Positions 3,868 through 36,687 of a DNA stretch of 64,000 nt are shown here, piece by piece. The stretch is from contig JADFNB010000001.1 of the NCBI GenBank assembly GCA_022563595.1, positions 65,416 to 129,415 on the forward strand, written 5' to 3'. The notes beneath the pieces are model-generated. The model had not been told where the DNA came from. It searched no databases and saw only the letters and a program-made list of their open reading frames with translations. A program made the position numbers and the translations under genes. The DNA is from Gemmatimonadota bacterium (GTDB lineage: Bacteria; Gemmatimonadota; Gemmatimonadetes; Gemmatimonadales; GWC2-71-9). Within the stretch, counting starts at the first letter, position 1, and each line of letters opens with the position of its first letter.

Positions 3868-3900
3868 GGATTGGGCATACCCGGAAAGGACGTCGAACGA

Positions 3901-19093: not shown

Positions 19094-19096
19094 CGT

Positions 19097-20285: not shown

Positions 20286-20359
20286 ATCCGTAAAGAAAGC
20301 GGCCCCGCGCGTTTGGCAAGCGGGGCCGTTGATTGTGCGACAACCGAGTTGTCGCTGAG

Positions 20360-20433: not shown

Positions 20434-20489
20434 CGATACGGCTAACCGTTGAAGCTAGAGCCCAGCGGCGTCACTTTCAAGCGGGCGGT

Positions 20490-22250: not shown

Positions 22251-22293
22251 GCTTATCGACCTCCAAACGGGCCGTCGTCATTGGCTTGCAAGA

Positions 22294-22368
22294 TGGGCGA
22301 AGAGGGATTCGAACCCCCGACATCCTGCGTGTAAGGCAGGCGCTCTAGACCAGCTGAGCTATTCGCCC
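22294..22368 (-). tRNA. tRNA-Val (anticodon TAC)
   Basis: Minus-strand read GGGCGAATAGCTCAGCTGGTCTAGAGCGCCTGCCTTACACGCAGGATGTCGGGGGTTCGAATCCCTCTTCGCCCA. Anticodon stem CCTGC/GCAGG, loop CTTACAC, canonical T-loop. Confidence 0.9.
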
Positions 22369-22381
22369 AACGCGGCACCGG

Positions 22382-22573
22382 TTACAGCGCGAGCCCGAGG
22401 GGAAACAATACGCAATAGCCGAGCACCAGCAGTATCGGGGCGAGCGTGGTCGATCCCCCCGCGAGCAATCCGTACCCCGCCGCGAGGGCAAGTACCGCGG
22501 CCCCGAGAATGACAAAGTTCTTCGGGCCGAAGTGCAACTTGGCCGCCGACACGCCCTTACCCGACATAGACAC
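22382..22573 (-). CDS. Small two-TM membrane protein
   Basis: 63-aa ORF with two clear hydrophobic helices (FVILGAAVLALAAGYGLL, LAPILLVLGYCVLFPLGLAL), co-oriented at the end of the operon. No family assigned. Confidence 0.45.
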   Translation of the reverse strand: MSMSGKGVSAAKLHFGPKNFVILGAAVLALAAGYGLLAGGSTTLAPILLVLGYCVLFPLGLAL

Positions 22574-22600: not shown

Positions 22601-23512
22601 TCAAGCAGGGTTTTGGGGCTCCTCGGGCGGGATCACCCACCCCTCGTCCAGCAACGCTTTCCGATCCCGGTCCCTGCGGCGGCGGCGTGCCCAGACCACA
22701 CCAACGACTACAGCCGTCACGCTCCAGAACAGCGCGAACGACGTAAAGATCCGCAACCACCCGTATCGCGCGCGGATGTCGCGGTGCCACATCGCCTCCA
22801 GCTGATCCAGCGTGACGAGGTGGGTGCGCCGTACCGCCCGCTCGAAGCTGCCTGTCGCGCCGGCGTTGGCGATCAGCGGTCCGAGCCCTCGCTCTCGTCC
22901 CAATCGCTCCAAGAACAGCACCGCCGCCGTCGCGAGCGCGTACGCAGCCCGGGCGTGCGTCGGGCCGCTTCGCAGTTCCGCGTTGAGGCGTCCGAAAGAT
23001 GGGATGTCACCCGTCATCAGCGCCCAGTTCAACCCCAGCGCGTCGAGCCGTCCCCATTCCTGCGCCGCCCGGGCCGCATACCCCTCGGCGAACCATAGAG
23101 GCAGGCGCGCGGCCGCGCGATGGAGCGCCAGATGGGCGAGCTCGTGCGCGAGGGTACCGAACGGATCTCCGGCGAGCATGATCACTACCGTGTTGGACCT
23201 GGGGAAAGCCGCACCACCGCTCCACGACGGCAGGCGACCGCGGGTGACGGAATCGAAGCGCTCCGCGGAGCGCGTCACGATGAGCCGTATCGGGGCCGAA
23301 TCGAGCGCGGGCATCCCGGGCCACGGACCCGCACGGTCGGCGAATTCGGCCAGGGCCGTGGCGGCCGCCTCGTCACCCTGCCAGTATACCGCCTCCACCC
23401 TGCCCACCCGAACGGTAGCGGGCTGCTGGAAGGAGAGGCCGACTGATACCGCGAAGATTACGAGCGAGGAGGCTCCTGCCCCTGGGCGGCCAGGTCGAGC
23501 GCCTCGCGGCAT
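22601..23512 (-). CDS. Putative zinc metallopeptidase (HExxH) with a C-terminal TM helix
   Basis: LAHELAHLALH is an HExxH motif and FAEGYA lies about 20 residues downstream (gluzincin-like). C-terminal helix FALFWSVTAVVVGVVW. The start is uncertain: ATG at 23510-23512 was chosen, and the track ORF extends to 23560. Confidence 0.6.
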   Translation of the reverse strand: MPRGARPGRPGAGASSLVIFAVSVGLSFQQPATVRVGRVEAVYWQGDEAAATALAEFADRAGPWPGMPALDSAPIRLIVTRSAERFDSVTRGRLPSWSGGAAFPRSNTVVIMLAGDPFGTLAHELAHLALHRAAARLPLWFAEGYAARAAQEWGRLDALGLNWALMTGDIPSFGRLNAELRSGPTHARAAYALATAAVLFLERLGRERGLGPLIANAGATGSFERAVRRTHLVTLDQLEAMWHRDIRARYGWLRIFTSFALFWSVTAVVVGVVWARRRRRDRDRKALLDEGWVIPPEEPQNPA

Positions 23513-24321
23513 TTCTTGCCCCAGGGATTGAACTTGTTGGTTTCGAACCCTTTCAGCCACGTTGCCTTGGCAGCATCCCGGTCACCCGCGCGCCAGTGCG
23601 AGCGACCGAGTTCGTAGTACGCCTCGATGAGATTCGGTCCGAGCTGCAAAGCCTTCTGGAAAAACGTCTGCGCATCCTCGTACATCTCACGCTCGAAATA
23701 CACGAGCCCGAGGTAATAGTGCGCGTAGAGTGTCGCCTTCTTGTCGTTGTCGAGCCGGATTGCTTTGGAGAGGTGCTCGATCGCCTCGCCGAATATCTGT
23801 TTCTTGAGACAGACGTATCCGACATTGATCCGCGCCAGCGAGTTGGCTGGCTCTTTCATGAGCACCTTCTGGAAGGCCCCGAGTGCGTTGTCGTAGTCCT
23901 CGTGTTTCATCTGGGCCCAGCCGAGCAGCGACTCTGCCTGCACGTCGCCCGGCGAGTACTGGAGCGCCGTAGACAGCGCCTGGATGGCGCCTTCATAGTC
24001 TCCCAACGAGATGAGATTCCAACCTTTCTCTATCAGGGTCGAAGCGTCGATGTGGCTGGCGTGCAGCGCTGGCATCTGGCCCGTGAACTGCGGCGCCTGA
24101 TCTCCTATCTGGCTTTCCCGCAGTTCCTTGTATTTGTCGACCAGGACGCGGATGTCTTCCTTCAGTGCCTGCAGATCTGTGATCGACTCGTCGACGATCT
24201 TGAACAGCGCGATGATCTCCCGCTTGACCGCTTCGCGTTGACTATTCGACTTCGCTTCGTCGAGACGACGTGAGATCGACGAGTAGCTGGCGCGCAACGG
24301 CGCCACGGCTGCATCACTCAT
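23458..24321 (-). CDS. TPR-repeat protein with an N-terminal coiled-coil
   Basis: 287 aa with repeated TPR-like units (GDYEGAIQALSTALQYSPGD, EDYDNALGAFQKVLMKEPAN, QIFGEAIEHLSKAIRLDND, MYEDAQTFFQKALQLGPN). Confidence 0.8.
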   Translation of the reverse strand: MSDAAVAPLRASYSSISRRLDEAKSNSQREAVKREIIALFKIVDESITDLQALKEDIRVLVDKYKELRESQIGDQAPQFTGQMPALHASHIDASTLIEKGWNLISLGDYEGAIQALSTALQYSPGDVQAESLLGWAQMKHEDYDNALGAFQKVLMKEPANSLARINVGYVCLKKQIFGEAIEHLSKAIRLDNDKKATLYAHYYLGLVYFEREMYEDAQTFFQKALQLGPNLIEAYYELGRSHWRAGDRDAAKATWLKGFETNKFNPWGKKCREALDLAAQGQEPPRS

Positions 24322-24810
24322 GTCCCGCCCCCACCATCAAGTCCTCGAGGGTCACCCGCTCGGCGGACGACAAGAGCCGCGAGACCGCGAGGATGACAAT
24401 CGTCCTACCACCGACATTCAGAATCCCGCTCATGAACTCCGCCGCCAGCTCACGCACTACCCCCGTGTTGGATCGCCGCCTGGGGCATCCCATAGATAAC
24501 CGCCGTCTCCCGATCCTGCGCGAACCCCGCCCCACCGGCATCGCGAATGGCGCTCAGTCCTGCGGCGCCGTCCCGTCCCATGCCCGTCCATACGACTCCG
24601 ACCGCGTGGGGGCCGAACAGCTCGGCCACCGAACGAAACAGTGGATCTAGGGACGGACGCCCCACGCCGGGGCACGCCGGGTGAGCCGAAGGCAAGGGCC
24701 GTCGAACCCCATGTCCACCAGCAAATGATAATCGCCGGGTGCGACGTACGCCGTATCGGCCAGCAGGGGCGCCCTGCCAACTGGCAGTATACAGCGCCGT
24801 CGCGCGCCGC
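24314..24810 (-). pseudogene. cheB: CheB methylesterase remnant: only the C-terminal ~110 residues, split over three reading frames
   Basis: My minus-strand translation reads, in frame A, ..[35 protein letters not shown] then TAG (24647-24649). Frame B reads [69 protein letters not shown] then a stop (24450). Frame C reads [15 protein letters not shown]... These match the conserved CheB blocks (APGD.H, RPS.D.LF.S, TGMG.DG, GMP..A). The N-terminal part of the catalytic domain and any REC domain are absent. Confidence 0.8.
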
Positions 24811-24960
24811 TCACAGCCCCGGAAGCACGCTCCTAGCCAGCGCATCCCAGGTCTCCCTATTGCGAAAGAACTTGGTGACGTTGATCGTCAGCGTATCCAG
24901 CAGCCGCTCATACTCCGCCGTGTCGCATGCGAGGATCCTGGAGCGGCGGACAGGGCGGGA
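24811..24960 (-). pseudogene. cheR: CheR methyltransferase fragment (about 35 conserved residues, no start codon, premature stop)
   Basis: Minus-strand translation ..[41 protein letters not shown] then TGA (24811-24813). This matches the CheR N-domain/MTase junction motif (T.N.T.FFR....f..L). The SAM-binding domain is missing. Confidence 0.7.
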
Positions 24961-24973
24961 TCCTGCTCGTCCG

Positions 24974-26593
24974 TCAAGTGAGTGCGCTCAGCGTTTCGAG
25001 GTTGGTCTTGACCAGTTCGTGACCCGGGTTCAGCTCCAGAGCGTGTTTCCAGCAGGTGGCGGCCTGCTCGCGGTCGCCGCGCTTGTAGGCGATGTTGCCG
25101 AGCTTGAAGTAGATGTCGTCCCCGAGCGTGGGGTCGAGCTTCACCGCCCGTTGATATGCCGCAGCCGCGTCGTCATACTGGGTCGTGCGGTACAAGATAT
25201 CACCGAGATTCTTCGACAGTTGTGGTACCGACGGGTCGTTCGCGAGCGTGGACCGCAGGATCTCCTCCGCCTGCTCTAGCTCGCCCAGGATCTCCAACAG
25301 CGCCGCCAGGTTGTTGCACAGGATGGGATGCCCGGGATGCTGCTCGAGACCGTCACGCAGCAGCACCTCGGCGGCAGCGTATTCATCTTGCGCGGCGGCG
25401 GTGAGCGCCCTGGCCCAGTACCACAGTGGGGGAAGCTGGTTCTCGCCCGCGATCTCACATGCACGGTCCAACCGGCCTTCGGCCACCCGGTACTCCCCGC
25501 GCTGGAGGGCGACGACACCCCATCCGGTCATGATACGGTGGTCCCGCCGCGCGCGGGTCGCCGCATCACCGTATGCGGTATCCGCGTGATCGAACTGACC
25601 GAGTTGTTCGTAGGCGAGCGCCAGGTTGTGCAGCACGCTCGGTTTGGCCCCGACCCGCTCAGCCGCGGTCCGCAGGAACCCCATGGCGTCCTGCCATCGT
25701 GCGTGCTTCAGCGCCACGATACCGAGGTAGAAGAACGCCTCCCCGTCATCGGGCCGGAGTTCCGCTACCCGGCGGAATTCTCGCGCCGCCTCATCGAGCA
25801 TCCCGGTCTTGTAGAACACCACGCCAAGGTTGTGGTGTTCCTGGATGCGGACATCGTTCACGTCCGCCGGTCGCGGCGCCTGGCTCCTGCCAGTGCGGTG
25901 TGCGAATCCCGCAGAGATGAGCCCGTAGAGCGCTTTGCCCACCTCGAACTCCACGATGCCGGCGTCCTCGATCACACTTGCGACATCACGGACCCCATCC
26001 AGCAACGGGAGAATCTGCCGCTGTTGCTCGGTCAGCTCGATGTCGGAGGATTCGAGCCGCTCGCGGTCCACCGAGAAGACCAGGTCGAACGAAGTGATCT
26101 TCTTTTCGATCAGGCTCCACTCGTCGATGCGACGTGCGCCTTCGAGCAGCAGCGATTGAGGGCTGATCGAGACCAGGAATTCCTCCCGCTCGGGATACAC
26201 GTCGCTCTCGAAGCTGAACGTGCCCTGCGTCCAGGTGAAGAGGAAATAGACCGCTTCCTCTATCTGAACGCGTATGAAATGTTCGAGGTCCTCACGCGTT
26301 ATCGCATTGTGCGAGATGAGGATCTCGCCCAGCCGGCGGTCGCGCTCGTGAGCCTGCTCCTCGACCGCTGCGTTCAGCTGCTCCGGCGTGATCTTCTTAT
26401 GTTTGACGAGTATGTCACCGAGTCGATCCCGCCGGTTCACGATGGACGCGTACGAGATCCGCCCCTTGTCGAAGTAGATGTACCCAAAGTTGTTCCGGTC
26501 GGCGACCGAGAGGCAGCCGGGTTTCTGCCCCAACGCGAGGAGTTGGAACACGTCCGGCAACGACGCTTCCTTGAGGCTCCCCTTGATCGCCAT
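24974..26593 (-). CDS. PATAN (DUF4388) domain protein with a tandem MshEN/T2SSE_N-like motif and C-terminal TPRs
   Basis: Start chosen at ATG 26591-26593 (ATGA overlap with the upstream stop), giving [43 protein letters not shown] (DUF4388 signature). This is followed by RLGDILVKHKKITPEQLNAAVEEQ and RLGEILISHNAITREDLEHFIRVQ, and then by several TPR units. Confidence 0.85.
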   Translation of the reverse strand: MAIKGSLKEASLPDVFQLLALGQKPGCLSVADRNNFGYIYFDKGRISYASIVNRRDRLGDILVKHKKITPEQLNAAVEEQAHERDRRLGEILISHNAITREDLEHFIRVQIEEAVYFLFTWTQGTFSFESDVYPEREEFLVSISPQSLLLEGARRIDEWSLIEKKITSFDLVFSVDRERLESSDIELTEQQRQILPLLDGVRDVASVIEDAGIVEFEVGKALYGLISAGFAHRTGRSQAPRPADVNDVRIQEHHNLGVVFYKTGMLDEAAREFRRVAELRPDDGEAFFYLGIVALKHARWQDAMGFLRTAAERVGAKPSVLHNLALAYEQLGQFDHADTAYGDAATRARRDHRIMTGWGVVALQRGEYRVAEGRLDRACEIAGENQLPPLWYWARALTAAAQDEYAAAEVLLRDGLEQHPGHPILCNNLAALLEILGELEQAEEILRSTLANDPSVPQLSKNLGDILYRTTQYDDAAAAYQRAVKLDPTLGDDIYFKLGNIAYKRGDREQAATCWKHALELNPGHELVKTNLETLSALT

Positions 26594-28548
26594 CAGGTCA
26601 GCTCCTCGATGATGCGGTTTGCCGCGTCTGGCCAACGCCAGATCATCTTCTCCCGGCTCTGCACACCCCCGGAGGGTGTCACGACGATCCCGCTGGTGCG
26701 AAGTCGAGCCGACGAGCGCCGCGGCCGCTCTGCCACTCCTTCCAGTAGCTCGCGCGCGAACCCGACCGATACCGCTACTCCCTGTGATTCAGCGGAGTCG
26801 GTCACGCGTTGCACCGTGGCAATCACGGAGCGGAGTGACTCGGCCTGACGGTCGGCCAGATACGCGGCGAGGTCGTCATCAACGTCACCCACGCGGGCGC
26901 TCAACTCGCGCTTCACCAGCGCCAGGCGAAGGTCGCGGTCAGGCGGCGCAAGATGGGTAACGAGCCCACCCTCCATGCGCGATATGAGCCGCTCATTGAC
27001 GCCGTCGAGTTCTCGCGGCGGCAGGTTGACCGTAAAGATCACCTGGAACTGTTTATCGACGAGCACGTTGAACAGGTTAAACAACTCCTCCTGCGAGCGT
27101 TCCTTGCCTGCCAGCAGATGCACGTCGTCCAAGAGCAGCGCGGAGACCCTGCGGTAGCGCGACCTCCAGGCGTCGAGCCGGTCCCGCTCTATGGCCTGAA
27201 CCAACTCGTCGAGGAAGTCCTGAGCCGACAGGCACGCCACGAGGGCGTCGGGCCCGGCCGAGAGGGCGTGGCCGATCGCGTGCAGGAGATGCGTCTTCCC
27301 AACACCGGTCGGGCCGACGATCACGAAGGGGTTGTAGAGCGTTCCCGGATTCTCTGCGACCGCGCGCGCCGACGTGAGCGCGAGTCGATTGGACTCGGCC
27401 TGCACGAAATCATCGAACGCCCAGGCGGCAGACGGGCCCGGCGGCGGCGCTAGTCCGGCTTTGGCCAAGCGGACCAGCTCCTCCGCGTCGGCTAGCCGGT
27501 CCGGATCGTGGAACGCGGCATCGCCCGCACACGCGGCGTCGAGAGCCGTCATCTCCCGCTCGAGTTCCTTCAGGCGCGTGACGTCGAGCCCAAACTGGCG
27601 CACGACCACGTCCGCGCCCACCGGTGTCTGCTGTTCGAGGAGCTTCGCTATGCGGGCCGCACGGTACCCGTGCCCCTCCCAATACACGACCGCTTCATGA
27701 AGGCGCCTCCGCCACGCCTCCATCTGCTGTGACAGTGCGGTCCCGACCGATAACAGGAACTGGTCGAACTCGTCGGGGGCTGATGTAGCTTCGGCGGCCG
27801 GTTCCCCCACCGCCACCACCTTGGCGGACTCCTTCAGACCCAGCAACGTGCACGCCCCCTCCGCCGTGAGTGCCGCTTCGTTCACCGCCTGGAACGCTAT
27901 CAACCGGTTGAGGAGTCCCAGTAGCTCGCGCACGTTGCGCGACTCGTACTCGGCCACCGATGCCAGCACCGCCTGCTCGAAATTCACGCCACGCTCCTCG
28001 GCCTTGCGCTTGAGAATGGCAAGCCGGGTCTCGAACTCGGGCTGGTCGATATCGACCACGAGCCCGCCCGCGAAGCGTGAGGTAAGCCGCTCGTCGAGGT
28101 CCCCGATCCCGGTCGGGGGCCGGTCGCTCGAGAGGACGATCTGCTTTTGGGATTCCAGAAACGCCGTGATGAACCGCAGCAACTCCGACTGCGTCTCGAG
28201 TCGGTGGGCCAGAAACTGCACGTCGTCCAGCAACACGATATCGACCGAGTTGAACCTGTTGCGGAACGCGTCGCTCTGTCCCGCGGCGACGGCGGCGTGA
28301 TATGCTTCGACGAACTCCTCGAGGGTCAGATACTCGACGGCCAGTTGCGGCGAGATGGTCTGGGCAAGATGACCCAACGCCATCATCAGGTGGGTCTTGC
28401 CCATTCCGCTGGCGCTGTAGATGAAGAGCGGGTCGTACGCGGTTCCGGGGCTCTCGGCCACGGTGCGCGCCGCGGCGACCGCGAGCCGGTTGCTCGGCCC
28501 GACGACGAACGAGTCGAAGGTGAAGCGCGGGTTCAGCTCCCGGGTCAC
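26593..28548 (-). CDS. Tandem DnaA-type AAA+ protein (two DnaA domain-III modules, no domain IV)
   Basis: Module 1 (res ~6-235): [59 protein letters not shown]. Module 2 (res ~376-605): [48 protein letters not shown] linker of about 140 aa separates them. The C-terminal tail lacks the DnaA domain IV HTH. The GTG start overlaps the mglA stop (GTGA). Confidence 0.85.
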
Positions 28549-29144
28549 GTCGGACTTTCCTCGCTCAGCTTGCGGAGCACCCGCTCGGAGATGGCCTTCA
28601 ACGTCTCGAAGACGCCCCGGCCGGTCACCGCCGCCGCCGGGAAGCTCGGGACGCCGCGGAAGTTGAGCTGCTCGTCCATCTCCTCGTGTGTGAGCACCAG
28701 GTCGCGCGGCAGGTCCTGCTTGTTGTACTGCAGCACCAATGGCACCGTGCGCACATCGATGCCCTGCTCCAACAGGTTGGCTTGGAGGTTCTGCAGGCTC
28801 TCGATGTTCTCATCGAGCTGCCGGGCCTGACTATCGCTCACGAACACCACACCGTCCGCACCCTGCAGCACCAGCTTGCGGGTCGCGTTGTAGTAGACCT
28901 GGCCGGGAACCGTGTAGAGCTGGAACCGCGTCGTGAACCCGGAGATCGTGCCCAGCTCGATCGGAAGAAAATCGAAAAACAGGGTCCGACCCGTATGCGT
29001 CGCGAGCGAAACCATTCGGCCACGACGTTCTTCCGGCACCCGTGTGTAGACGTACTGCAGATTCGTCGTCTTCCCCGACCGTCCGGGGCCGTAGTAGACG
29101 ATCTTGCACGTGATCTCGCGGGTCCTGAAGTTGACGAGCGACAT
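28545..29144 (-). CDS. mglA: Ras-like polarity GTPase MglA
   Basis: [32 protein letters not shown] (intrinsic Arg finger), [12 protein letters not shown] (catalytic Gln) and QYNKQDLP. It is alignable along its whole length to Myxococcus MglA as I remember it. Confidence 0.93.
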
Positions 29145-29151
29145 GTGCCCC

Positions 29152-29619
29152 TTACTGGAAAAGGGTCGCGAGACTCTCGTTCAGATCCCGCTCAAAGTCC
29201 GCCGCCAGGACAGCTCGTTTGGGTGCCAGAGCCGGCGCTGCCGCGGACAGCTCCGCCACCAGCTCTTCGAAGAATAACTGTACCAGCCCGACCGAGGACT
29301 CGGCACCGTAGACCACCAAGACCAGCAGTCTGCCGCGGGGCGAGTCGAAACCCGCGAGGAACACGCCGTGCCGGTCCCCTTGGTGACTCAAGGCCCGGAA
29401 CTCCCGTCCCTGGAGCATGCGCGCGAGTTCACTGGTGGACGCGACGATCCCCGCGCCCAGCACGGCTGCCGACATGACGTCCACCGCTCGCGTGAACCCA
29501 TGCTGCGCCATGACCTGACCCGATGGAGTCATCACTAGGGTCAGCCGCGCACCCGCCTCACTGACGAATCGCTCGAGCGGGCCCAGGATCCAGGGCTCTA
29601 CCGCGCGGGTCGGCTTCAC
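29152..29619 (-). CDS. mglB: Roadblock/LC7 protein, MglB-like (putative MglA GAP)
   Basis: 155 aa immediately upstream of mglA (mglB-mglA order as in Myxococcus). Roadblock-like core ..[16 protein letters not shown]...[35 protein letters not shown]. The acidic C-terminal tail [14 protein letters not shown] resembles the MglB tail. GTG start. Confidence 0.78.
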
Positions 29620-29966
29620 GCAATCCCCTCAACGGCCCGCAGCATCTCGAGACGCGCGAGCCCCACGTTGACATCGGCTTCCCCTACCACGACGAGTACC
29701 AAGCCGTCGCCCGCCGGTACAGTGAGCAAGACTCCTTCCTCGGCCTGCAGGTGCACGAAGTAGGGCGTTCCGACACCGCTCGCCTCCGCGGCTCTATGGA
29801 GCCGCTTGACGAGCGATGCCGCCAGCGCCGCAACCGCGTTGCCGCGCACCCCCTCCATCAACGATTCCGCCACCACGATTCCGTCATCCGCCGCGACGAG
29901 CATCGCGCCGTGGACACCGCGCACCCGCGTGATGGTGTCCAGCAGCGCCACGAACCGGAAGTTCAC
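29616..29966 (-). CDS. Roadblock/LC7 domain protein (second paralog)
   Basis: Start chosen at GTG 29964-29966 (GTGA overlap with the upstream stop), giving VNFRFVALLDTITRVRGVHGAMLVAADDGIVVAESL...FVHLQAEEGVLLTVPAGDGLVLVVVGEADVNVGLARLEM, a typical Roadblock/LC7 fold pattern. The longer track ORF (to 30293) overlaps the upstream gene. Confidence 0.75.
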   Translation of the reverse strand: MNFRFVALLDTITRVRGVHGAMLVAADDGIVVAESLMEGVRGNAVAALAASLVKRLHRAAEASGVGTPYFVHLQAEEGVLLTVPAGDGLVLVVVGEADVNVGLARLEMLRAVEGIA

Positions 29967-30754
29967 CGCGGCTCTCCCTCGAGCCAGGCCCGCGCGGCGG
30001 CACCAGCCCGTTCGGCCATCAGCGCCACCCGTCCGGGCGGGATGCTCCGGTCGCATTTGACCAATAACAGTGCTTCTTCGGAAGGCCGCGACACGTACAG
30101 GTGACCCTGCGGCCCTTCCGCCACGATCGCGCGCCAGGCGCCCAGACCGAGCAGGCGTGCCGTGCGCTGGGCCTCCTGCGAGGCACCCGCAAGGTAGGCT
30201 GCGACCTCCTCGGCAGCATCCTCGTTCCGCGCATTGCGCAGCGAGCCACCGAGCACCCGTCCACGATCGTCGACCAGCAGGATGCCTTCCCACGATCCCT
30301 CGAACCCCGCGAACACGTCCGCGGTACGTTCCACGGGTTCGGCGGCCGCGCGCTCGGCCGCCGCCCGCACGCGCCGCAGCGCCTGGATCACCGACCCGTC
30401 GGTCGGGTCAACCGAGAGCGCCGTCTCGAGGTGATCGAGCGCCGCATCCAAGTCACCGTAGCGATAGAACAGAAACCCTATTCCCTTGAGGGCGCCGACG
30501 TGACGCGGCTCGAGCTGCAGGGTGCGCCGCCACGCCTCATGCGCAGCTTCTACATTGCCGGCGTCGATCAGGACCCGCGCGTACACGTCGTGAGCATCCG
30601 CGAGATCGGGATGGCGTTGCAGGCCGGTCAGCGCCACCTTGGCGGCGGCGTCCACCTGTCCGCGCACGCGCAGCGCCTCACCCAACTGGAGGAAGACCAG
30701 GCTGGCCGGATCTCGGGCAAGCTCCGCCGTCAGCCCCTTGATATCATCCGCCAT
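29963..30754 (-). CDS. TPR - Roadblock/LC7-like fusion protein
   Basis: Start chosen at ATG 30752-30754 (MADDIKGL..). The N-terminal half has TPR units (AHDVYARVLIDAGNVEAAHEAWRRTLQLEP, GDLDAALDHLETALSVDP). The C-terminal half, WEGILLVDDRGRVLGG...WRAIVAEGPQGHLYVSRPSEEALLLVKCD, has a Roadblock-like pattern. Confidence 0.7.
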   Translation of the reverse strand: MADDIKGLTAELARDPASLVFLQLGEALRVRGQVDAAAKVALTGLQRHPDLADAHDVYARVLIDAGNVEAAHEAWRRTLQLEPRHVGALKGIGFLFYRYGDLDAALDHLETALSVDPTDGSVIQALRRVRAAAERAAAEPVERTADVFAGFEGSWEGILLVDDRGRVLGGSLRNARNEDAAEEVAAYLAGASQEAQRTARLLGLGAWRAIVAEGPQGHLYVSRPSEEALLLVKCDRSIPPGRVALMAERAGAAARAWLEGEPR

Positions 30755-31925
30755 ATCGCGCCCGCAGGATCGCGTCGAGGGCCTGCGCCGCATCGGCGGC
30801 AGCCGTCACCCGGTTGCGCTCTTCCGGGTCGTCATCTTCCCCTCCCACGGTCAACGACCGCCGCCACCAATCCGCGGCCTCCGCCAGCTTCCCCTGCATC
30901 ACGAGCGCGTCGCCGAGGACACGGTGCCCCGGCGCCAGGAGCGGATCGAGACCGAGTACGCGGCGGCATTCCGCCTCACCTTCTCCTGGGCGTCCCGCAG
31001 CCAACTCAACGGTAGCGGCGGCCAAGTGCACCAGTGGAGATCCGGACTGGGTGGCAAGGAGCTTCTCGACCTCCTGGCGGGCCTGGGCAACCGAACGCTG
31101 CTCGAGCAGCAAGTCGATGCGCGCCAATGCGCTCTGCAGGTCACGCTCGTCACCCCCACCACCACCGCCACCTTTTTCCTCCTCACCGCCGCCTCCCGCG
31201 GCGCCCGAATCCCGTAGCGAGAGGATGCCCGCGCTCTGCAGTCCGAACACCATCTTCGCCACATCGAACTCGGCGCGACCCAGGATCTGGGCGATCCCGC
31301 GCAGATCGCGGGTGCCGTCGACCATCGCCAACACTTCCCACTCGAGGGGCAGCAGATCGAGTTGGCCGCCTTCACCCTCAGCCACGGGCTCCAGGACGGG
31401 GACGACGCCCAGATGGGGAACCTGTCGCTGGATCCGGGACCACTCGTCAGTGCGCCGGGCCGCCTCCATGAGAAGCACTTCGGTCGGGATGCGGACCGGC
31501 GCACCGGTCGCGAGATCCGTGGGCGGGCCTTCGGTGAAAGAAAAGTGCCCTTCCTGCCACCCCATCACCTCGAAGACCACCTCCTCGACCTGGAGTCGTA
31601 TCTGGCGCTCCAGATCACGCGGCGAAAGCGCACCGATCTCGACGAGGATCTCACCAAGGCGTCTGGTGTCTCCGCGCCGCTGCATGTCGTCGGCAATCTC
31701 CAGCTCACCCTCGGTGATCTTCCCGGCCCGAAGCAGGAGCGCACCCAACTGGTGCGGGTTGCTGCGGATCTGAGCGGCGACGACAGCGCCGCTCTCAAAC
31801 TGGATGGCACCGTCGTTCCGCCGCAATTGCGACGTGACGCGCAGCGTCCCGGTCTTCCTGCTCAGGTCGAGCAGTTGGAAGACATCGTGGATGCTCAGCT
31901 CCTTGAGCGGTCCTTCGATCGCCAC
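30744..31925 (-). CDS. PATAN (DUF4388) domain protein with a tandem MshEN/T2SSE_N-like motif, Gly/Glu-rich linker and C-terminal TPR
   Basis: MAIEGPLKELSIHDVFQLLDLSRKTGTLRV..GAIQFESGAVVAA (DUF4388), then QLGALLLRAGKITEGELEIADDMQ and RLGEILVEIGALSPRDLERQIRLQ. A low-complexity stretch GAAGGGGEEEKGGGGGGGDERD follows, then TPR-like helices at the C-terminus. Confidence 0.85.
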   Translation of the reverse strand: MAIEGPLKELSIHDVFQLLDLSRKTGTLRVTSQLRRNDGAIQFESGAVVAAQIRSNPHQLGALLLRAGKITEGELEIADDMQRRGDTRRLGEILVEIGALSPRDLERQIRLQVEEVVFEVMGWQEGHFSFTEGPPTDLATGAPVRIPTEVLLMEAARRTDEWSRIQRQVPHLGVVPVLEPVAEGEGGQLDLLPLEWEVLAMVDGTRDLRGIAQILGRAEFDVAKMVFGLQSAGILSLRDSGAAGGGGEEEKGGGGGGGDERDLQSALARIDLLLEQRSVAQARQEVEKLLATQSGSPLVHLAAATVELAAGRPGEGEAECRRVLGLDPLLAPGHRVLGDALVMQGKLAEAADWWRRSLTVGGEDDDPEERNRVTAAADAAQALDAILRARYGG

Positions 31926-31926
31926 G

Positions 31927-34605
31927 CTATGGGGCCTCTATTTGGAAGATATGCTTGAGATCGAGCGCCGTACGCGCGTGTCGGCGTGCTTTCTGCGCAT
32001 ACGATCCAGCCGGATCCAGCTGGACGACCCGTTCCCAGGCACGGACGGCGTCGCCGTAGCGGCGCAGGCGGGCCAACGCCACACCCATATAGAAGTGCGC
32101 GGCGATGTGGTCCGGATCATGTGCGCTGATGCGTCGGAACGCCTGGAGCGCCTGCTCGATCCGGCCGTCGTCTACCAGAACCTGCGCGAGCGCGAGCAGG
32201 GCATCGAGGTCGGACGGATCGGCATCCAAGATATCCACCAGGAGGTTAGCCGCCTCGCGAAACCGGGCCTTCCTGCGGTAGACCCGCGCGAGGGGGATCG
32301 CCGCCTCTGCGTAGGTGGGCAGCGCTTCCAGCGCCGCTCTGTATGCCGTCTCGGCCATCACCCAGTCCTCACGCTGCTCGTACACCGTCCCCAGCGCTAC
32401 GCGCGCCTGGACCAATCGCGGATCGAGCTCCAACGCAGCCTCGTACGCTTCCCGGGCCGTGTCGAGATCGCCAGTACCCAGCGCGATGTCGCCTTCGAGT
32501 TTCGGGATGTCGGCCCGTTGCGGTGCGCGCCGCCGTGCGGCGCGCACCGCTTCCACGGCGCCGGCCGGGTCACCATTCAGGCGACGCACCTCGGCGGCGG
32601 CGAGCAGCACCTCAAGATCGTCCCGGCATTCCGAGACGAGTCGTTCCGCATCCTCGCGCGCGTCCGAGCCGCGCCCCAACGCAATCAAGGCGCGTACCTC
32701 GCCCAGCCTGGCGTCCACGCGCTCGGGCGCGCGCAGGCGTGCCTGAGCATAGCGCTCGCGCGCCTCACCGTGGAGTCCGCGCCGCGCGAAGATCTCGGCT
32801 GCCAGCACCAGCACCTCCAGTTCGTCCACACCCCGCGCCTCTGCCCGGTTGACCTCGGCCGCGGCCAGCTCCAGCAGCCCCTTGGAGAGATAGTCGCGCG
32901 CCAGCCCCAGTGGGTCTCCTCCCACCCGGGACGGACGGGGAATCGGGCGCTCGAGTTCGCGGACGATCTGGTCCAGCACCGCGGGATCGAATCGCAGGGC
33001 CTGCGACGTCAACTCCGCGGCAACGTCAGCGGAGATCTCCGGTATGACCGAGATCGTGGAGTCCTCGTACTGGAGATCGATGGCGAGCCGAAACTTCTGC
33101 GGCACGTAGTAGGGATCGAGCGTCTGGGCGCGGGTCACCGCGCGGAGCCCGCCGTCGTAGTCGCCCAAGGCCGACAGTGTGAAGCTCAGGTTGTAGTGCG
33201 CCTCCGCCGATCCCGGGTCGCTCTCCACTGCGCGGGCGAAGGCGTTGCGGGCGTCGCTGATGCGCCCCAGCTCATTGAGCACCAGGCCAATCCCGTTCCA
33301 CGCCGGGGCCGACAGCGGGTCGACATCGAGGACCCCTTGATACGCCTGTAGCGCGAGCTGCAGCCTGCCGAGCTGCGCCAACAGCAGCCCCAAGTTCAAG
33401 CGCGCAACGAGCAACGACGCATCCGCGCGCATCGTGTCGTGGAATGCCTCGATCGCGTCATCGTGTTTGCCCTGATGCGCCAACGTCACCGCGAGGTTGT
33501 TGCGCGCCAGCGCATATTCGGGCGTGATCTCGATCGCCTGTCCGTAGGAGGCGATCGCGTCGGCGGGATGCCCCAGCTGGTGGTACACGACACCTCGCTC
33601 GTTCCACAGCTTGGGTGAGCCCGGCGCCTCCCGCACGAGCGTCTCGTACAGTTCGAGCGCCGAGCTGTAGCTCCGCTTCAGCAGATGCACCTCCGCCATC
33701 GCCTGGAGCACGAGATGCCGGTCTTCCCCGCGCTCCAGGGCGAGGCGGTACTCGCGCAGCGCCTCGTTGTAGTATCCCTTCTGCCGGAACGCGAGCCCGA
33801 GGTTGTAGTTGGCCAGCACCTGCCCTGCGATTACCTCGGGTTCGTCGGGGATGCGCATCGGCTGGCTCTTGCGGTCACCCACGTATCGCTCGAGCGACAG
33901 GTTCGTCTGAGCCCGCGCGAACGTGGGATTCAGCCGGATCGCCCGCTTGCTGGCCTCGCGTGCCGCCTCGTGCCGTCGCAGATCGCCGTACACGAATGCC
34001 GCTAGGTAGTGGGCATCGGCGTTCTCGGGGCTCAGCTCGATCGCCCGCTCGAGCTCCCCGATGGCATCCGTATCGAGACCCCGATTGTAGAGTGTTTCGC
34101 CCAGGTAGAAATGCACGACGCTGCTCTCGGCATCCAGATCCCGCGCGCGCTCGAACCATGCCGTTGCCGCCTCGAGTCTGCCCCGTAGCTTTTCAGCCAA
34201 ACCCAGCTGGATGAGAGCCGCGAGATCGTTCGGCAGCCGCGCCACGATGACCTCGAACTCCTGTATGGCGTCGTCGTACTGCCCGACGGAGGCGTAAGCC
34301 CGTCCCAGCTCCCAGCGAGCTTCCCGGTCGTCGGGCGTGGCACGCAACCGCTCGGTGAGCTGGGTGACACGACGGTCGTAATAACCGGTTTCTTTGTAGG
34401 CGATTTCCAGGTTGCGCTGCGCGACCGACATCCTGGTATCGAGTTCGAGCGCTCGGGTGAACGAGGCGATCGCCTCGTCGATCATCCCTTTCTGGTAGTA
34501 GAGAACGCCGAGATTGTTGTGCGCTCCCGGATCCGACGGGTCGATCCGTCGAGCGAACGAGCGCAGGGCCGCGAGGTCTCGTTCCGACACCACCTCGATC
34601 GACAT
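31927..34605 (-). CDS. Large TPR-repeat protein (892 aa)
   Basis: TPR units run almost end to end (e.g. GMIDEAIASFTRALELD, GQYDDAIQEFEVIVARLPND, GYYNEALREYRLALERG, GKHDDAIEAFHDTMRAD). Only 1 nt separates it from the downstream gene. Confidence 0.85.
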   Translation of the reverse strand: MSIEVVSERDLAALRSFARRIDPSDPGAHNNLGVLYYQKGMIDEAIASFTRALELDTRMSVAQRNLEIAYKETGYYDRRVTQLTERLRATPDDREARWELGRAYASVGQYDDAIQEFEVIVARLPNDLAALIQLGLAEKLRGRLEAATAWFERARDLDAESSVVHFYLGETLYNRGLDTDAIGELERAIELSPENADAHYLAAFVYGDLRRHEAAREASKRAIRLNPTFARAQTNLSLERYVGDRKSQPMRIPDEPEVIAGQVLANYNLGLAFRQKGYYNEALREYRLALERGEDRHLVLQAMAEVHLLKRSYSSALELYETLVREAPGSPKLWNERGVVYHQLGHPADAIASYGQAIEITPEYALARNNLAVTLAHQGKHDDAIEAFHDTMRADASLLVARLNLGLLLAQLGRLQLALQAYQGVLDVDPLSAPAWNGIGLVLNELGRISDARNAFARAVESDPGSAEAHYNLSFTLSALGDYDGGLRAVTRAQTLDPYYVPQKFRLAIDLQYEDSTISVIPEISADVAAELTSQALRFDPAVLDQIVRELERPIPRPSRVGGDPLGLARDYLSKGLLELAAAEVNRAEARGVDELEVLVLAAEIFARRGLHGEARERYAQARLRAPERVDARLGEVRALIALGRGSDAREDAERLVSECRDDLEVLLAAAEVRRLNGDPAGAVEAVRAARRRAPQRADIPKLEGDIALGTGDLDTAREAYEAALELDPRLVQARVALGTVYEQREDWVMAETAYRAALEALPTYAEAAIPLARVYRRKARFREAANLLVDILDADPSDLDALLALAQVLVDDGRIEQALQAFRRISAHDPDHIAAHFYMGVALARLRRYGDAVRAWERVVQLDPAGSYAQKARRHARTALDLKHIFQIEAP

Positions 34606-34609
34606 AGCG

Positions 34610-34864
34610 TCAGGTCAGGCGTATCGCGTCGAAGATGGCGTTCCGCGAGGCGATATCGGGAAGGAGGAGGAAATGTCCCGCCAGCCGCTGGCCCGCTTCC
34701 TGAAAATCGAAGTTCGTGCCGACGCAGAAGACGAAGTCCCGTTCCTGCCCGAAATTCAGATCCGTCGTCGTACGCACGGCAGCCGACAGATCGATGACGA
34801 GATTGGGCACCGATGGCAGGAGCATCATACCCATGAAATCGGAGCGCGCGTGGGAAAGATCCAT
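34610..34864 (-). CDS. CheC/CheX-family half-domain protein (possible remnant)
   Basis: Internal ATG at 34862-34864, 2 nt after the cheY stop, gives an 84-aa product. MMLLPSVPNLVIDLSAAV... and ...AGHFLLLPDIASRNAIFDAI resemble the C-terminal half of Bacillus CheC as I recall it (..YPSVPEVSLDMFGAV.. and ..AHMFMLPDYDSFEKLFVAL). The E-x2-N phosphatase helix that should precede PSVP is absent. Confidence 0.45.
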   Translation of the reverse strand: MDLSHARSDFMGMMLLPSVPNLVIDLSAAVRTTTDLNFGQERDFVFCVGTNFDFQEAGQRLAGHFLLLPDIASRNAIFDAIRLT

Positions 34865-34866
34865 GC

Positions 34867-35229
34867 CTACCCGAGGACCCTCTGGACGGCCTCTAGCACG
34901 CGAGAGGGCTGAAACGGCTTGACTAGGAAATCCTTGGCACCGGCCTGGATCGCCTCTGCCACGAGGGCTTGCTGCCCCATGGCGCTGCACATCAAGACCC
35001 GGGCGTTGGGGTCGTCCTTGATGATCTCACGTACCGCGTCGATGCCGCTCATGTCGGGCATCACGATGTCCATCGTGACCAGGTCGGGCTTGAGCTGTCT
35101 GTACTTCTCGACTGCCTGCAGACCGGTTGCGGCTTCGCCCACGATATCGAACCCAGCCTGCGACAGAATATCGCTGATCATGGTACGCATGAACATGGCG
35201 TCGTCGCAGACAAGTATCGTGTGGTTCAC
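34867..35229 (-). CDS. cheY: Single-domain response regulator CheY
   Basis: 120 aa: ILVCDDAMFMR (DD), LVTMDIVMPDMSG (phospho-acceptor Asp), LMCSAMG (Ser/Thr) and KDFLVKPF (Lys). All receiver residues are intact. Confidence 0.93.
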   Translation of the reverse strand: MNHTILVCDDAMFMRTMISDILSQAGFDIVGEAATGLQAVEKYRQLKPDLVTMDIVMPDMSGIDAVREIIKDDPNARVLMCSAMGQQALVAEAIQAGAKDFLVKPFQPSRVLEAVQRVLG

Positions 35230-35238
35230 GCATCCTCC

Positions 35239-35661
35239 CTAATGAGTGAGAAGCGGTCCCAGCAACGCGTCGAGGTCGAGCACGATGAACGCGCCGCCCG
35301 CGCGCTGACCTACTGCCCGAACCAGTCGCGGATCGATGCCCGGCAACTCACGACGGTGCGCGAGGTCACCGTCGGCGAGTGCTAAGAGGTCCAGCACCTC
35401 ATCGACGGTCACCGCGACGCTGCGGGACCCAACGGTGAGCAAGATGGTCGGACCGCCGTTCGCACTCTACTCCCGGCCGAGTAAGCGCGCGCCGTGGACA
35501 AGTGGAACGAGTTCGCCCCGCAGGTTGATCAGTCCCGCGATCACGGGTGGCGCGCCGGGAAGCCTGGTCGCCCGGCGCGGGGGTAGGATCTCGCGGACCG
35601 CCCGCACATCGGCGGCGCAGACCAGAACCGAAACCCGGAACACGACGAGGCGCAACCGCAT
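35239..35661 (-). pseudogene. cheW: CheW coupling protein interrupted by one in-frame amber codon (TAG at 35467-35469)
   Basis: Track ORFs 35467..35661 and 35239..35442 are in the same frame. Continuous read: MRLRLVVFRV..VREILPPRRATRLPGAPPVIAGLINLRGELVPLVHGARLLGRE-TAG-SANGGPTILLTVGSRSVAVTVDEVLDLL...FIVLDLDALLG. This is a full-length CheW of about 140 aa with conserved blocks on both sides of the stop. Confidence 0.8.
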
Positions 35662-35675: not shown

Positions 35676-36647
35676 TTATTTAAACACACCAAGATAGTCC
35701 AGCACCCTAGGCCGAGCAAGCAACTCCGGGTCGGCGCTCGCCGCCTCCAGCCCGGGACGGAGGTCGCTCGGCCAATCCGCCTTGAAGACCAGCCATTCCC
35801 GACTCACGGGATGGGCGAATGCGAGGGACGCCGCATGGAGCGCCTGGCGTGGTGTTGCCCGCTCCACCGCGCCGGCGCGGGCCCGTTGCTGGCCGGTCAT
35901 CCGCCGGCTTCCGCCTCCGCCATAGACCTGGTCGCCGACGACCGGGTGCCCGATGTGGGCCAGGTGCACGCGGATCTGGTGGGTGCGGCCGGTCGTGAGT
36001 TGTACGCGAACCAAGTCGCACACATCGAACCGGGCGACCGGCTCGGCAATGCTGCACGCCGGCCGGCCCGTGGCCAGCACCGTCATGCGCTTGCGCTCCC
36101 GCGGATGTCGCGCGATCGGGGCATCGATCTCCACACGTCCTTTCAGATGTCCCCAAACCAGCGCCACGTAGCGGCGCTCGACTCGGCGGGCCGCCAGCGC
36201 CCTGCCGAGCCGCCGGTGCGCGTCATCGGTCTTGGCAATGATCAACAGCCCCGAAGTATCACGGTCGAGCCGATGCACCACTCCCGGGCGCCCGCCGGCG
36301 CCCGAGGAGAGGGGCGCGCCTCGCGCGATCAGCGCGTTCACCAGCGTGTCATCCCAGTGACCGGGCGCAGGGTGCACGACCAGTCCGGCAGGTTTGTTGA
36401 GGACCAGCAGGTACTCGTCCTCGTAGACAACGTCGAGATCCCGCGGGTGTGGTCGGAGCGGGCGCCGCCGCTCCGGCGCTGCGAACCGGACCTCGACCAG
36501 GTCCCCCCGCACCAGTGGCCGGCCGGCACGGCCCGCGACACCGTTGACCGACACGGCACCGCCCCCGATCAGACGACTCGCCTGGGTCCGTGACAGCGCG
36601 AGTTGATCAGCGAGAAAGCGGTCCAGCCGTTCGGTGACGTCCGCCAT
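35676..36647 (-). CDS. rluD: 23S rRNA pseudouridine synthase RluD (RluA family, S4 domain)
   Basis: Start chosen at the internal ATG (MADVTERLDRFLADQLALSRTQASRLI, S4 domain). Catalytic motif HRLDRDTSGLLIIAK and GRTHQIRVH. Confidence 0.9.
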   Translation of the reverse strand: MADVTERLDRFLADQLALSRTQASRLIGGGAVSVNGVAGRAGRPLVRGDLVEVRFAAPERRRPLRPHPRDLDVVYEDEYLLVLNKPAGLVVHPAPGHWDDTLVNALIARGAPLSSGAGGRPGVVHRLDRDTSGLLIIAKTDDAHRRLGRALAARRVERRYVALVWGHLKGRVEIDAPIARHPRERKRMTVLATGRPACSIAEPVARFDVCDLVRVQLTTGRTHQIRVHLAHIGHPVVGDQVYGGGGSRRMTGQQRARAGAVERATPRQALHAASLAFAHPVSREWLVFKADWPSDLRPGLEAASADPELLARPRVLDYLGVFK

Positions 36648-36687
36648 CACCTGGAACGCAATGCGCGTTCCGCCGGCCCCGGCGCCG

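Follow-up and report, generated by a model that had tools for sequence, protein, structure and literature searches.

A layered gene cluster of the Gemmatimonadota combines MglA/MglB polarity genes, PATAN/TPR proteins and a tandem DnaA-like ATPase

What might a polarity GTPase, a set of chemotaxis-type genes and a doubled relative of the replication initiator DnaA be doing side by side in one tight run of genes? The question is raised by a 64,000-nucleotide stretch of the genome of a Gemmatimonadota bacterium of the order Gemmatimonadales (contig JADFNB010000001.1, positions 65,416 to 129,415; henceforth the window), which has a G+C content of about 67% and carries nearly all of its genes on the minus strand. 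Within it lies a cluster, running from cheW to a gene for a small hydrophobic protein, that a first-pass annotation made from the letters alone had proposed as a single candidate novel system. Pfam profile searches confirmed every domain call across this cluster (CheW with an in-frame TAG read through), and MglA, MglB, three Roadblock proteins in all, two PATAN proteins and a doubled DnaA-type ATPase (here named DnaA2x) are all real. All cluster genes are on the minus strand, as are the rluD, mraW and tRNA genes that border it. It is well supported that the cluster is vertically inherited, specific to the phylum Gemmatimonadota and built in three layers. The best explanation of its function, a polarity circuit that works in the manner of the Frz pathway of Myxococcus, is one for which we see the case as about evenly balanced.

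To place the locus in its phylum, the proteins of the window were compared by tblastn with 22 Gemmatimonadota loci, one of them in a complete chromosome. The neighbourhood is no peculiarity of this genome, since the same gene order was found in 22 of 22 loci as far as each contig reaches. Such an order, recurring in 22 independent loci whose DnaA2x identity to the window (36–75%) goes down to 36%, is more than would be expected by chance. Relatives of DnaA2x at 55% identity or above number more than 120 after clustering at 90%, and all of the named ones belong to Gemmatimonadales/Gemmatimonadota. One relative (L001, 57% DnaA2x identity) keeps the order from rluD through to murE. A closer one (L002, 75% identity) reads rluD, CheW, CheY, CheA, CheC, TPR, PATAN-TPR, TPR-Roadblock, Roadblock, MglB and MglA in its first half, followed by DnaA2x, PATAN-TPR, CheR, CheD, CheB, CheW, CheW, TPR287, peptidase, a 61-aa protein, TPR and mraW; a third (L086, 76% identity) has the same upstream half as L002. 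Even the junctions are kept in part: mglA and DnaA2x overlap in the window and in L002, whereas in L001 they are next to each other with no overlap, and all three share the 1-nt overlap of DnaA2x with the PATAN gene that follows it (PATAN2). We also scanned genomes with a narrow DnaA2x alignment, a pattern that caught ordinary dnaA as well, over an incomplete genome sample; ordinary dnaA aside, the tandem protein was found, among the matches listed, solely on Gemmatimonadota-type contigs. One contig labelled Acidimicrobiia (L016, CAXMUQ010000073.1) carries the full Gemmatimonadales cluster in the same order, and is probably mis-binned given this complete synteny.

The trio of MglA, DnaA2x and PATAN thus co-occurs throughout the Gemmatimonadales. 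A search of representatives clustered at 50% recovered full-length tandem relatives down to 34% identity, which fall into several groups. In the Longimicrobiales, a group that includes the cultured Gaopeijia maritima and in which the second Walker A of DnaA2x is degenerate, the locus reads divIVA, ileS, (lspA), rluD, DnaA2x, PATAN-TPR and Peptidase_MA_2; it sits at the same chromosomal site, and genes for MglA, MglB, Roadblock, Che and large TPR proteins are all missing from it. Orthologues of the peptidase come after PATAN2 even here. A low-G+C group is made up of deep Gemmatimonadota metagenome-assembled genomes (MAGs) and one MAG labelled Cloacimonetes (L083), in which CheW, CheY, CheA, AAA_22, CheW, CheC, an 826-aa TPR protein, PATAN and DnaA2x follow one another without any Mgl gene. 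Another deep lineage, L084, has an 867-aa orthologue of the large TPR protein of the window (TPR892) directly before DnaA2x, and full-length TPR892 orthologues adjoin DnaA2x in both L083 (E 3e-70) and L084 (E 2e-97). A 200-aa protein after DnaA2x in L084 was considered as a PATAN domain and ruled out (hhalign probability 0.1). Overall, DnaA2x always adjoins a TPR partner, which is usually PATAN-bearing as well.

These comparisons resolve the cluster into three layers, each of them well supported. The first is an invariant core, in which DnaA2x is translationally coupled to a PATAN/TPR protein, with a membrane metallopeptidase downstream. The second, an addition at the level of the Gemmatimonadales placed directly upstream of DnaA2x, consists of MglA/MglB, two Roadblock proteins, a second PATAN/TPR protein and TPR892. 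The third is a Che pathway that surrounds the other two and of which only cheY is intact in the window. DnaA2x with a TPR/PATAN protein is the older and wider unit. Since the core stands alone in the Longimicrobiales and occurs without Mgl in L083, the cluster is modular and not one indivisible system, and in this respect the joined system proposed at first pass does not hold.

The outermost layer is also where the window departs most from its relatives. In these the Che set is arranged as cheW-Y-A-C upstream and cheR-D-B-W-W downstream of the Mgl and core genes, and the complete pathway (CheA, CheW, CheY and the adaptation enzymes) is found in L002, L086 and L022 and not in the window. We searched the window by tblastn with the Che proteins of L002. 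The cheW of the window (35239..35661; Pfam CheW E 6.8e-21 with read-through) shares 64% identity with its uninterrupted counterpart in L002, in an alignment that spans the TAG (35467-35469). The 622-aa CheA of the relatives has been deleted along with the 5' part of cheC, leaving an 84-codon 3' remnant (34610..34864) that gives no Pfam match, starts 2 nt after cheY and aligns with residues ~128–206 of the 206-aa L002 CheC, i.e. its last ~80 codons. Downstream, the 652-nt interval between PATAN2 and TPR287 (24322-24973) is occupied by four fragments of decayed che genes (24317..24942): aa 53–101 of CheR with a stop, aa 231–270 and aa 260–332 of CheB in different frames and with a partial Pfam match to CheB_methylest, and aa 99–159 of the last CheW, its C-terminal 60 codons. 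The gene cheD and one cheW have been deleted.

The window contains, then, the cheW with an amber codon, the half-CheC and the cheR/cheB piece that had been listed among the genes of the operon, but judged from their sequences these are pseudogene remnants and not working genes. Recoding of the cheW TAG was considered and ruled out, as four other che genes of the cluster are truncated, frameshifted or deleted, and for the same reason, the decay of its four neighbours, the TAG is taken as a pseudogene mark. By the same alignments the window is to be seen as a Che-decayed derivative of an ancestral Gemmatimonadales layout in which a complete Che set surrounded the Mgl genes. Losses in this layer are not confined to the window: L001 is without cheW and cheR-D-B-W-W, and L013, L014 and L018 without cheB; loss of cheA is unique to the window among the loci compared. 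The surviving cheY (34867..35229), a single-domain receiver (Pfam Response_reg E 2e-30), is 86% identical to that of L002 and keeps D9, D10, D54, S82 and K104 (phospho-acceptor residues). The deletion of cheA has left this receiver an orphan, which may be fed by another kinase or be heading to decay itself. Identity to L002 is 90% for MglA, 75% for DnaA2x and 75% for PATAN2, conservation that equals that of the housekeeping neighbours RluD (66%) and MraW (62%). As the Mgl, PATAN and DnaA2x genes have stayed intact after the decay of the Che genes, the core would seem to be independent of Che input.

Of the genes that have been retained, mglA (28545..29144) is the easiest to identify. Its product is a small GTPase with full-length matches to the characterised MglA of M. 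xanthus (E 1.8e-75) and T. thermophilus (E 1e-65), and it keeps the P-loop, GRTLFFD with the intrinsic arginine (R53 equivalent), YTVPGQ with the threonine and catalytic glutamine, and NKQD. By these sequence criteria it is a group-1 orthologue of the polarity GTPase with all catalytic motifs, in agreement with what the first reading of the arginine and glutamine had proposed. The gene directly upstream, mglB (29152..29619; Pfam Robl_LC7 31.6 bits, cut-off 23), is paired with mglA in the same way in every Gemmatimonadales locus covering the pair. MglB matches those of M. xanthus (E 1e-9) and T. thermophilus (E 2e-6), and its score against the equivalog model for Thermus-type MglB (NF052242, 35.1 bits) is so far under the cut-off of 200 that it has to be regarded as a divergent MglB. 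The two further Robl_LC7 proteins of the cluster, all three being above the Pfam cut-off, are a 263-aa TPR-Roadblock fusion (29963..30754; Pfam TPR_2 and Robl_LC7, 30.3 bits with a cut-off of 23), whose 11-nt overlap with the upstream PATAN gene (PATAN1) is identical in L001, and a 116-aa single-domain Roadblock/LC7 protein (29616..29966; 45.6 bits), which in the PDB most resembles generic Roadblock proteins (7f8m, 7yh1). TPR892 (31927..34605), with matches to many Pfam TPR families, completes this block together with PATAN1.

The two PATAN-TPR proteins, PATAN1 (30744..31925; PF14332 E 4e-31) and PATAN2 (24974..26593; E 9e-38), score 107.9 and 129.4 bits against PF14332 (DUF4388), for which the cut-off is 25. 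In PATAN1 the PATAN domain, which contains an MshE-like insert, is N-terminal and is joined to the C-terminal TPRs by a linker rich in Gly and Glu; the second half-motif of the insert, RLGEILVEIGALSPRDLERQIRLQ, fits a relaxed MshEN pattern. The consensus of the PATAN orthologues (RLGDxLVKxGKITxxQLxxAxxxQ, a 6-residue spacer and RLGEILVxxGAITRxELExxxRxQ) comes near to the MshEN motif as published (PMC5013675), and PATAN2 exceeds the cut-off of 38 for the NCBIfam model NF053729, a cyclic di-GMP (c-di-GMP)-binding domain related to MshE, with 55.6 bits. An AlphaFold2 model of the N-terminal domain of PATAN2 was built from a two-sequence alignment and is trusted only over its MshE-like segment (predicted local distance difference test, pLDDT, 71 overall and 83–92 over residues 61–110). 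Residues 58–119 superpose on c-di-GMP-bound MshE (5htl_B) over 56 columns with a root-mean-square deviation (rmsd) of 1.1 Å and 38% identity, and also on GSPII-B of Thermus PilF (8pdk), the range over c-di-GMP-bound structures being 1.0–2.2 Å. Foldseek E-values for so short a segment are weak, and the weight lies on the agreement of sequence model, motif and several structures. A PDB sequence search with full-length PATAN2 was swamped by TPR matches. Taken together, the PATAN proteins are probable c-di-GMP sensors by way of an MshE-type insert. Elsewhere in the same low-confidence model, residues ~177–236 gave weak winged-helix-like matches and low-probability matches to the GATOR1/SEA complex.

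DnaA2x itself (26593..28548) is a 651-aa protein that matches Pfam Bac_DnaA (PF00308) twice (E 6e-103), each half covering the whole model. It is laid out as an N module (residues 1–235), a helical linker (~260–363) and a C module (~370–605) followed by an acidic C-terminal tail, with disordered stretches at residues 240–258 and 606–639. Its AlphaFold2 model (mean pLDDT 85) contains the domain III fold twice, and its closest match in the PDB is domain III of B. subtilis DnaA (8bv3; target-normalised TM-score 0.94, rmsd 1.5 Å, 44% identity). Pfam finds in it neither domain IV (Bac_DnaA_C, PF08299) nor domain I (PF11638), both of which are carried by the true DnaA proteins from the same searches; DnaA2x is therefore not an initiator DnaA. 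It is not simply an Hda either, being a tandem protein that scores 192.9 bits against TIGR03420 (cut-off 194.8) when summed over two stretches. Likeness to tandem AAA+ proteins of the p97/Rix7 type was examined and ruled out (alignment rmsd ~24 Å).

Walker A/B, sensor I/II and Box VII are all present in each module of the window's DnaA2x. Across 110 family members, what is invariant is divided between them: Walker A/B residues G48, G50, K51, D108 and D109 in the N module, and the Box VII residues R520 and R524 in the C module, the latter even in the Longimicrobiales, whose C module no longer has Walker A or B. At the arginine-finger position of the N module, conversely, the residue is variable, and roughly half the sampled Gemmatimonadales have Gly there. 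This pattern points to a single conserved composite ATP site, probably formed by the N-module pocket and the C-module arginine finger, in cis or, Hda-like, in trans. Motifs specific to the family are also found in the linker (DEFxxFLSxV and FRDPD) and at the very end of the protein (xEKxVWxWPxxxxRLxEE), where W639, P640 and E648 reach a conservation of 90% or more after a segment with pLDDT below 50. Given that the conserved acidic tail comes after a flexible stretch, and that a neighbouring gene always encodes a TPR array, the tail probably docks into the TPR array of a neighbour in an EEVD-type arrangement. The search of representatives also returned proteins with a single DnaA-like AAA+ module, without domain IV and fused to other parts (P0217, P0237, P0247, P0178, P0179). 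P0217 has ~870 aa of TPRs fused to such a module, P0237, P0247 and P0178 have an N-terminal domain of the c-di-GMP type (MshE/T2SSE_N), and long coiled coils also occur among these fusions. They fit a functional link of DnaA-like modules with TPR or c-di-GMP-sensing parts.

How could these pieces work together? Several published observations suggest a direction. Genomic linkage of MglA/MglB with PATAN, given in the first-pass annotation as established knowledge, has indeed been described (PMC4316618, citing Makarova et al. 2006). In Myxococcus, MglA-GTP recruits SgmX, a protein with 14 TPRs that brings PilB to the pole, and SgmX co-occurs with uncharacterised PATAN proteins (PMC11580455). In Synechocystis, PATAN is an output domain that binds PilB1 and PilC and is found in Che-type clusters (bioRxiv 10.1101/2021.06.11.447907), and the Frz pathway, also of Che type, switches MglA/MglB polarity in Myxococcus. 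The complete Che set around the Mgl genes of the relatives comes close to this Frz-to-MglA/MglB logic. We consider the best explanation, one we would back with about the same confidence as we would doubt it, to be that the layered cluster works as a Frz-like polarity circuit. CheA/CheY signalling (lost in the window) and c-di-GMP sensed by PATAN would set the nucleotide state or the location of MglA through MglB and the Roadblock proteins. MglA-GTP would then recruit the large TPR protein as SgmX is recruited in Myxococcus, with TPR892 as the candidate effector or scaffold, and the PATAN domains would engage a polar machine, for which the type IV pilus motor, the partner of PATAN in cyanobacteria, is the most plausible candidate. 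DnaA2x would take no part in replication initiation and would act as an ATP-dependent assembly switch, its N-module ATP site probably completed by the arginine finger of the C module and its acidic tail probably docked on a TPR neighbour.

A number of points weigh against this polarity circuit. Neither the window nor any of the 10-kb flanks contains pilus, flagellar or other output genes, which leaves the output undefined, and no chemoreceptor (MCP) gene is present in any of the cluster tables (window, L001, L002, L086). DnaA2x and PATAN occur without MglA in the Longimicrobiales, and the coupling of MglA to DnaA2x may accordingly be looser than the operon suggests. On the c-di-GMP side, the two MshEN-motif PATAN proteins of the first-pass annotation are borne out for PATAN2 by its 55.6 bits, but PATAN1 stays just below the NF053729 cut-off (35.7 vs 38), and PATAN2 of the window has K and N at two motif positions that are glycine in most orthologues. 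As to DnaA2x, the arrangement of the two modules is not confidently predicted (predicted TM-score, pTM, 0.49), and the composite site and the docking of the tail are ideas drawn wholly from conservation. The invariant arginine finger, moreover, sits on a module that can be without its P-loop, which would also fit an Hda-like action in trans on DnaA.

This last point leads to a cell-cycle reading, which we think unlikely and still deserving of attention. DnaA2x would here be an Hda- or Soj-like regulator of true DnaA, or act on single-stranded or origin DNA; together with PATAN/TPR it would couple the replication or the position of the chromosome both to c-di-GMP and to division or the identity of the poles, and MglA/MglB would provide the polar address in the Gemmatimonadales. 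In the regulatory inactivation of DnaA, Hda donates an arginine finger to DnaA, and the pattern seen in DnaA2x, a finger that is invariant despite the loss of the P-loop, is that of a finger donor. Each of its modules is closer to domain III of true DnaA (N module 44%, C module 38% identity) than to the other (36%). The C module moreover retains the DnaA B-motif (GKERxQEELF). Against the reading, the N module has E in place of the B-motif arginine, both in the window and in the consensus. The lack of domains I and IV also speaks against it, as does the N-terminus of DnaA2x, in which no clamp-binding motif of the QL[SP]LPL type was found. Its persistent partners, furthermore, are signalling and scaffold proteins (TPR, PATAN, Che) and not replication proteins. 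The core does lie between divIVA-ileS-lspA-rluD and the division and cell wall (dcw) cluster across the phylum, but adjacency to dcw is synteny and not functional evidence.

The same consideration bears on the proposal, made at first pass from the position of the cluster, that its role is in polarity or division rather than in gliding motility. The flanks are as stated there, with the dcw cluster (mraW to ftsZ) downstream and the divIVA-ileS block upstream; the preference for division over motility rests on this position, which is phylum-wide synteny, and lacks functional evidence. In its most developed form, the core of DnaA2x and PATAN/TPR would be a DnaA-derived, non-initiator AAA+ switch of a new class, gated by ATP and c-di-GMP, that ties the chromosome or DnaA to pole identity, is addressed by MglA/MglB and tuned by Che in the Gemmatimonadales, and controls asymmetric, budding-type growth or division and not motility. 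We rate this as improbable. Were it true, the switch would control the very asymmetric growth after which the phylum was named. A literature search on motility and budding in Gemmatimonadota returned nothing specific.

A more sobering possibility, to which we give a similarly low probability, is that the Che operon, mglBA with the Roadblock genes and the DnaA2x-PATAN-peptidase unit are adjacent independent units, frozen by synteny and without a shared function. The layers do occur apart (the core alone in Longimicrobiales, Che and core without Mgl in L083), and in the window as in L001 the Che layer has been lost while the rest is intact. The junctions, however, tie the layers together. Counting negative values as overlaps, the distances in the window are 14 nt (rluD/cheW), 9 (cheW/cheY), 2 (cheY/cheC remnant), 4 (cheC remnant/TPR892), 1 (TPR892/PATAN1), -11 (PATAN1/TPR-Roadblock), -4 (TPR-Roadblock/Roadblock), -4 (Roadblock/mglB), 7 (mglB/mglA), -4 (mglA/DnaA2x) and -1 (DnaA2x/PATAN2). 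Stops and starts thus overlap or abut across layers, by 4 nt at mglA/DnaA2x and also by 4 nt at PATAN2/cheR in L002. The Mgl block lies between cheC and cheR in every Gemmatimonadales locus covering that region, PATAN and TPR proteins are found in both the Mgl block and the core, and MglA-PATAN and MglA-TPR links are known independently. No terminator-like signal exceeded shuffled expectation; in the promoter and terminator scan all counts remained within it, which makes the scan uninformative on operon limits.

The same distances qualify the extent of the operon. A tight co-directional run is indeed present, but in place of 13 or more genes with gaps of at most 13 nt it comprises 11 co-directional open reading frames (ORFs), from cheW to PATAN2, with gaps of -11 to +9 nt. 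The genes listed further downstream are there as well, but 652 nt of decayed DNA separate them from the run, and a 27-nt gap lies between the last two. They are TPR287 (23458..24321), a 287-aa protein with an N-terminal helical region and Pfam TPRs, kept at the same position in Gemmatimonadales loci (53–78% identity); the membrane-anchored Peptidase_MA_2 with a HELAH motif (22601..23512, likely start ATG 23512), which with 30.3 bits is under the PF13485 cut-off of 32.4 and whose orthologues are annotated as Peptidase_MA_2; and, 27 nt after the peptidase, a 63-aa hydrophobic protein without Pfam match (22382..22573), kept in Gemmatimonadales loci at 46–79% identity, which is the last gene of the cluster. 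Beyond it come tRNA-Val(tac) (22292-22369), the gene for a 586-aa TPR protein (TPR586, 20490-22250), tRNA-Asp(gtc) (20359-20433) and mraW (19374-20285), the start of the dcw cluster. The two tRNAs that flank TPR586 are found in the same places in L001, L002, L005, L015 and L022, and their positions set the 3' limit of the cluster, making TPR586 a separate unit. An Rfam scan gave these two tRNAs and nothing else, with no riboswitch, the c-di-GMP type included.

On the other side, the upstream flank consists of rluD (35676-36773), lspA, a dksA-like gene, ileS, a gene of the purine-nucleoside-phosphorylase family (PNP) and divIVA. Further up, cdaA (45301-46107), encoding a cyclic di-AMP synthase with a DAC domain, is part of a conserved block (ftsH, folP, cdaA ... 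divIVA, ileS), and the order ftsH/cdaA ... divIVA-ileS-rluD is shared by the Longimicrobiales. Upstream of divIVA there is also a gene for an 821-aa TMEM260-like protein of the protein O-mannosyl-transferase family (42815-45280). Around DnaA2x in other lineages, L084 has two bactofilin genes (3765-4667) ~3 kb upstream of the gene for the 867-aa TPR protein and ~5 kb upstream of DnaA2x, and in the Longimicrobiales locus L087 a gas-vesicle cluster (16727-21974) is found on the opposite strand, beyond the DnaA2x-PATAN-peptidase unit and two opposite-strand genes.

Could the Che layer be an ordinary flagellar chemotaxis pathway, with the Mgl, PATAN and DnaA2x proteins modulating the placement or function of flagella and the lineage of the window having lost Che because it lost its flagella? 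We hold this to be very unlikely. The relatives do have CheC and CheD alongside CheA, CheW, CheY, CheR and CheB, a combination also found in the flagellar pathways of many bacteria, and Che decay in a single lineage would fit a loss of motility. Some Gemmatimonadota are flagellated, but flagellar genes are present in only one or two soil genomes of the phylum (PMC10581226), while many of the loci with a full Che set are from soil MAGs, which mildly favours a pilus or polarity function over flagellar chemotaxis. Type IV pilus genes are found in Gemmatimonadota of all environments but marine (PMC10581226). Characterised group-1 MglA proteins control type IV pili or gliding and not flagella (PMC4316618, PMC3983030), and no flagellar gene was seen in any flank in the cluster tables of the window's relatives. 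An anti-phage or conflict system made of an AAA+ ATPase, TPR proteins and a small GTPase is least probable of all, for AAA+/STAND ATPases, TPR arrays and small GTPases do occur in some defence systems and PADLOC gives weak P-loop/TPR matches, but these lead to no family beyond such generic similarity, the position between housekeeping genes is fixed across the phylum with vertical inheritance, no nuclease or toxin effector is present and MglA is an orthologue of the polarity GTPase.

Should the Frz-like polarity circuit be correct, its interest would go beyond this genome. Nearly all that is known of MglA/MglB polarity control comes from Myxococcus, which encodes the components at dispersed loci. 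In the present cluster a single operon holds the entire candidate circuit, from the sensor pathway and the GTPase to three Roadblock proteins, TPR effectors and PATAN proteins, and it is conserved across a major soil phylum. It also includes a DnaA-type ATPase in doubled form, a component not known from any polarity system. Nature has in effect dissected the circuit already, in that most Gemmatimonadales have every layer, the genome of the window has lost Che and the Longimicrobiales are without Mgl, and cultured strains (Gemmatimonas, Gaopeijia) make it approachable. The questions that it raises are the role of PATAN outside cyanobacteria, a c-di-GMP input to MglA polarity and the job of a DnaA fold that does not initiate replication.

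Among known systems the closest is the polarity module of Myxococcus (MglA, MglB, MglC, RomR/RomX, RomY; Frz; SgmX), with which the cluster shares an orthologous MglA, an MglB, extra Roadblock paralogues (MglC there), a large multi-TPR protein, co-occurring PATAN proteins and, in the relatives, a Che-type pathway with a single-domain CheY. It differs in that the components are dispersed in Myxococcus and gathered in one operon here, in that nothing in the Myxococcus module corresponds to the two PATAN/TPR proteins or to the tandem DnaA-like ATPase, and in the decay of the Che layer in the genome of the window. Pfam detected no further receiver-domain protein in the cluster, no search having been aimed at RomR, RomX or RomY. 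The likeness to Frz is functional and not one of family membership: Frz is built on FrzE, a CheA-CheY fusion, the receivers FrzZ/FrzX and the cytoplasmic MCP FrzCD, whereas the CheA of the relatives has Hpt, P2, H-kinase_dim, HATPase_c and CheW domains and, by Pfam, no receiver. The actinobacterial conservon (CvnA-D: sensor kinase, Roadblock, CvnC and MglA-like GTPase) is likewise an operon of GTPase, Roadblock and signalling kinase (PMC4316618). Its MglA is of group 2 and not group 1, its kinase of the CvnA and not the CheA type, and it has a CvnC, which is missing here, where PATAN, TPR and DnaA2x are present instead.

The PATAN and DnaA-like proteins have their own relatives. As in the cyanobacterial Tax/Pix systems, in which PatA-type (PATAN-REC) proteins bind PilB1/PilC, PATAN is here found inside a Che-type cluster as a likely output domain, but it is fused to TPRs and not to a receiver, has an MshE-type insert, is unlinked to pilus genes and is accompanied by MglA/MglB and DnaA2x. 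The insert shares with the MshEN/GSPII domains of V. cholerae MshE and T. thermophilus PilF the two 24-residue half-motifs of the type RLGxx(L/V/I)(L/V/I)xxG..., and differs from them in lying within PATAN instead of forming the N-terminal part of a secretion or pilus ATPase, in its spacer of 6 residues and not 5, and, in PATAN2 of the window, in the replacement of glycines by K and N. Each DnaA2x module has the domain III fold of DnaA and, like Hda, the protein is without domains I and IV; unlike either it has two modules per chain, a family-specific helical linker of ~100 residues and a conserved acidic tail, lacks a clamp-binding motif, is encoded with signalling and not replication genes and, among the matches listed, is restricted to Gemmatimonadota-type genomes. 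In the literature that we searched, no paper links a DnaA-like ATPase to MglA, MglB, Roadblock or PATAN, in line with the expectation that no such system had been described, and the partners accordingly do not amount to a characterised MglA complex. The cluster is a known theme, Che with MglA/MglB polarity, to which one undescribed protein family, DnaA2x, has been added.

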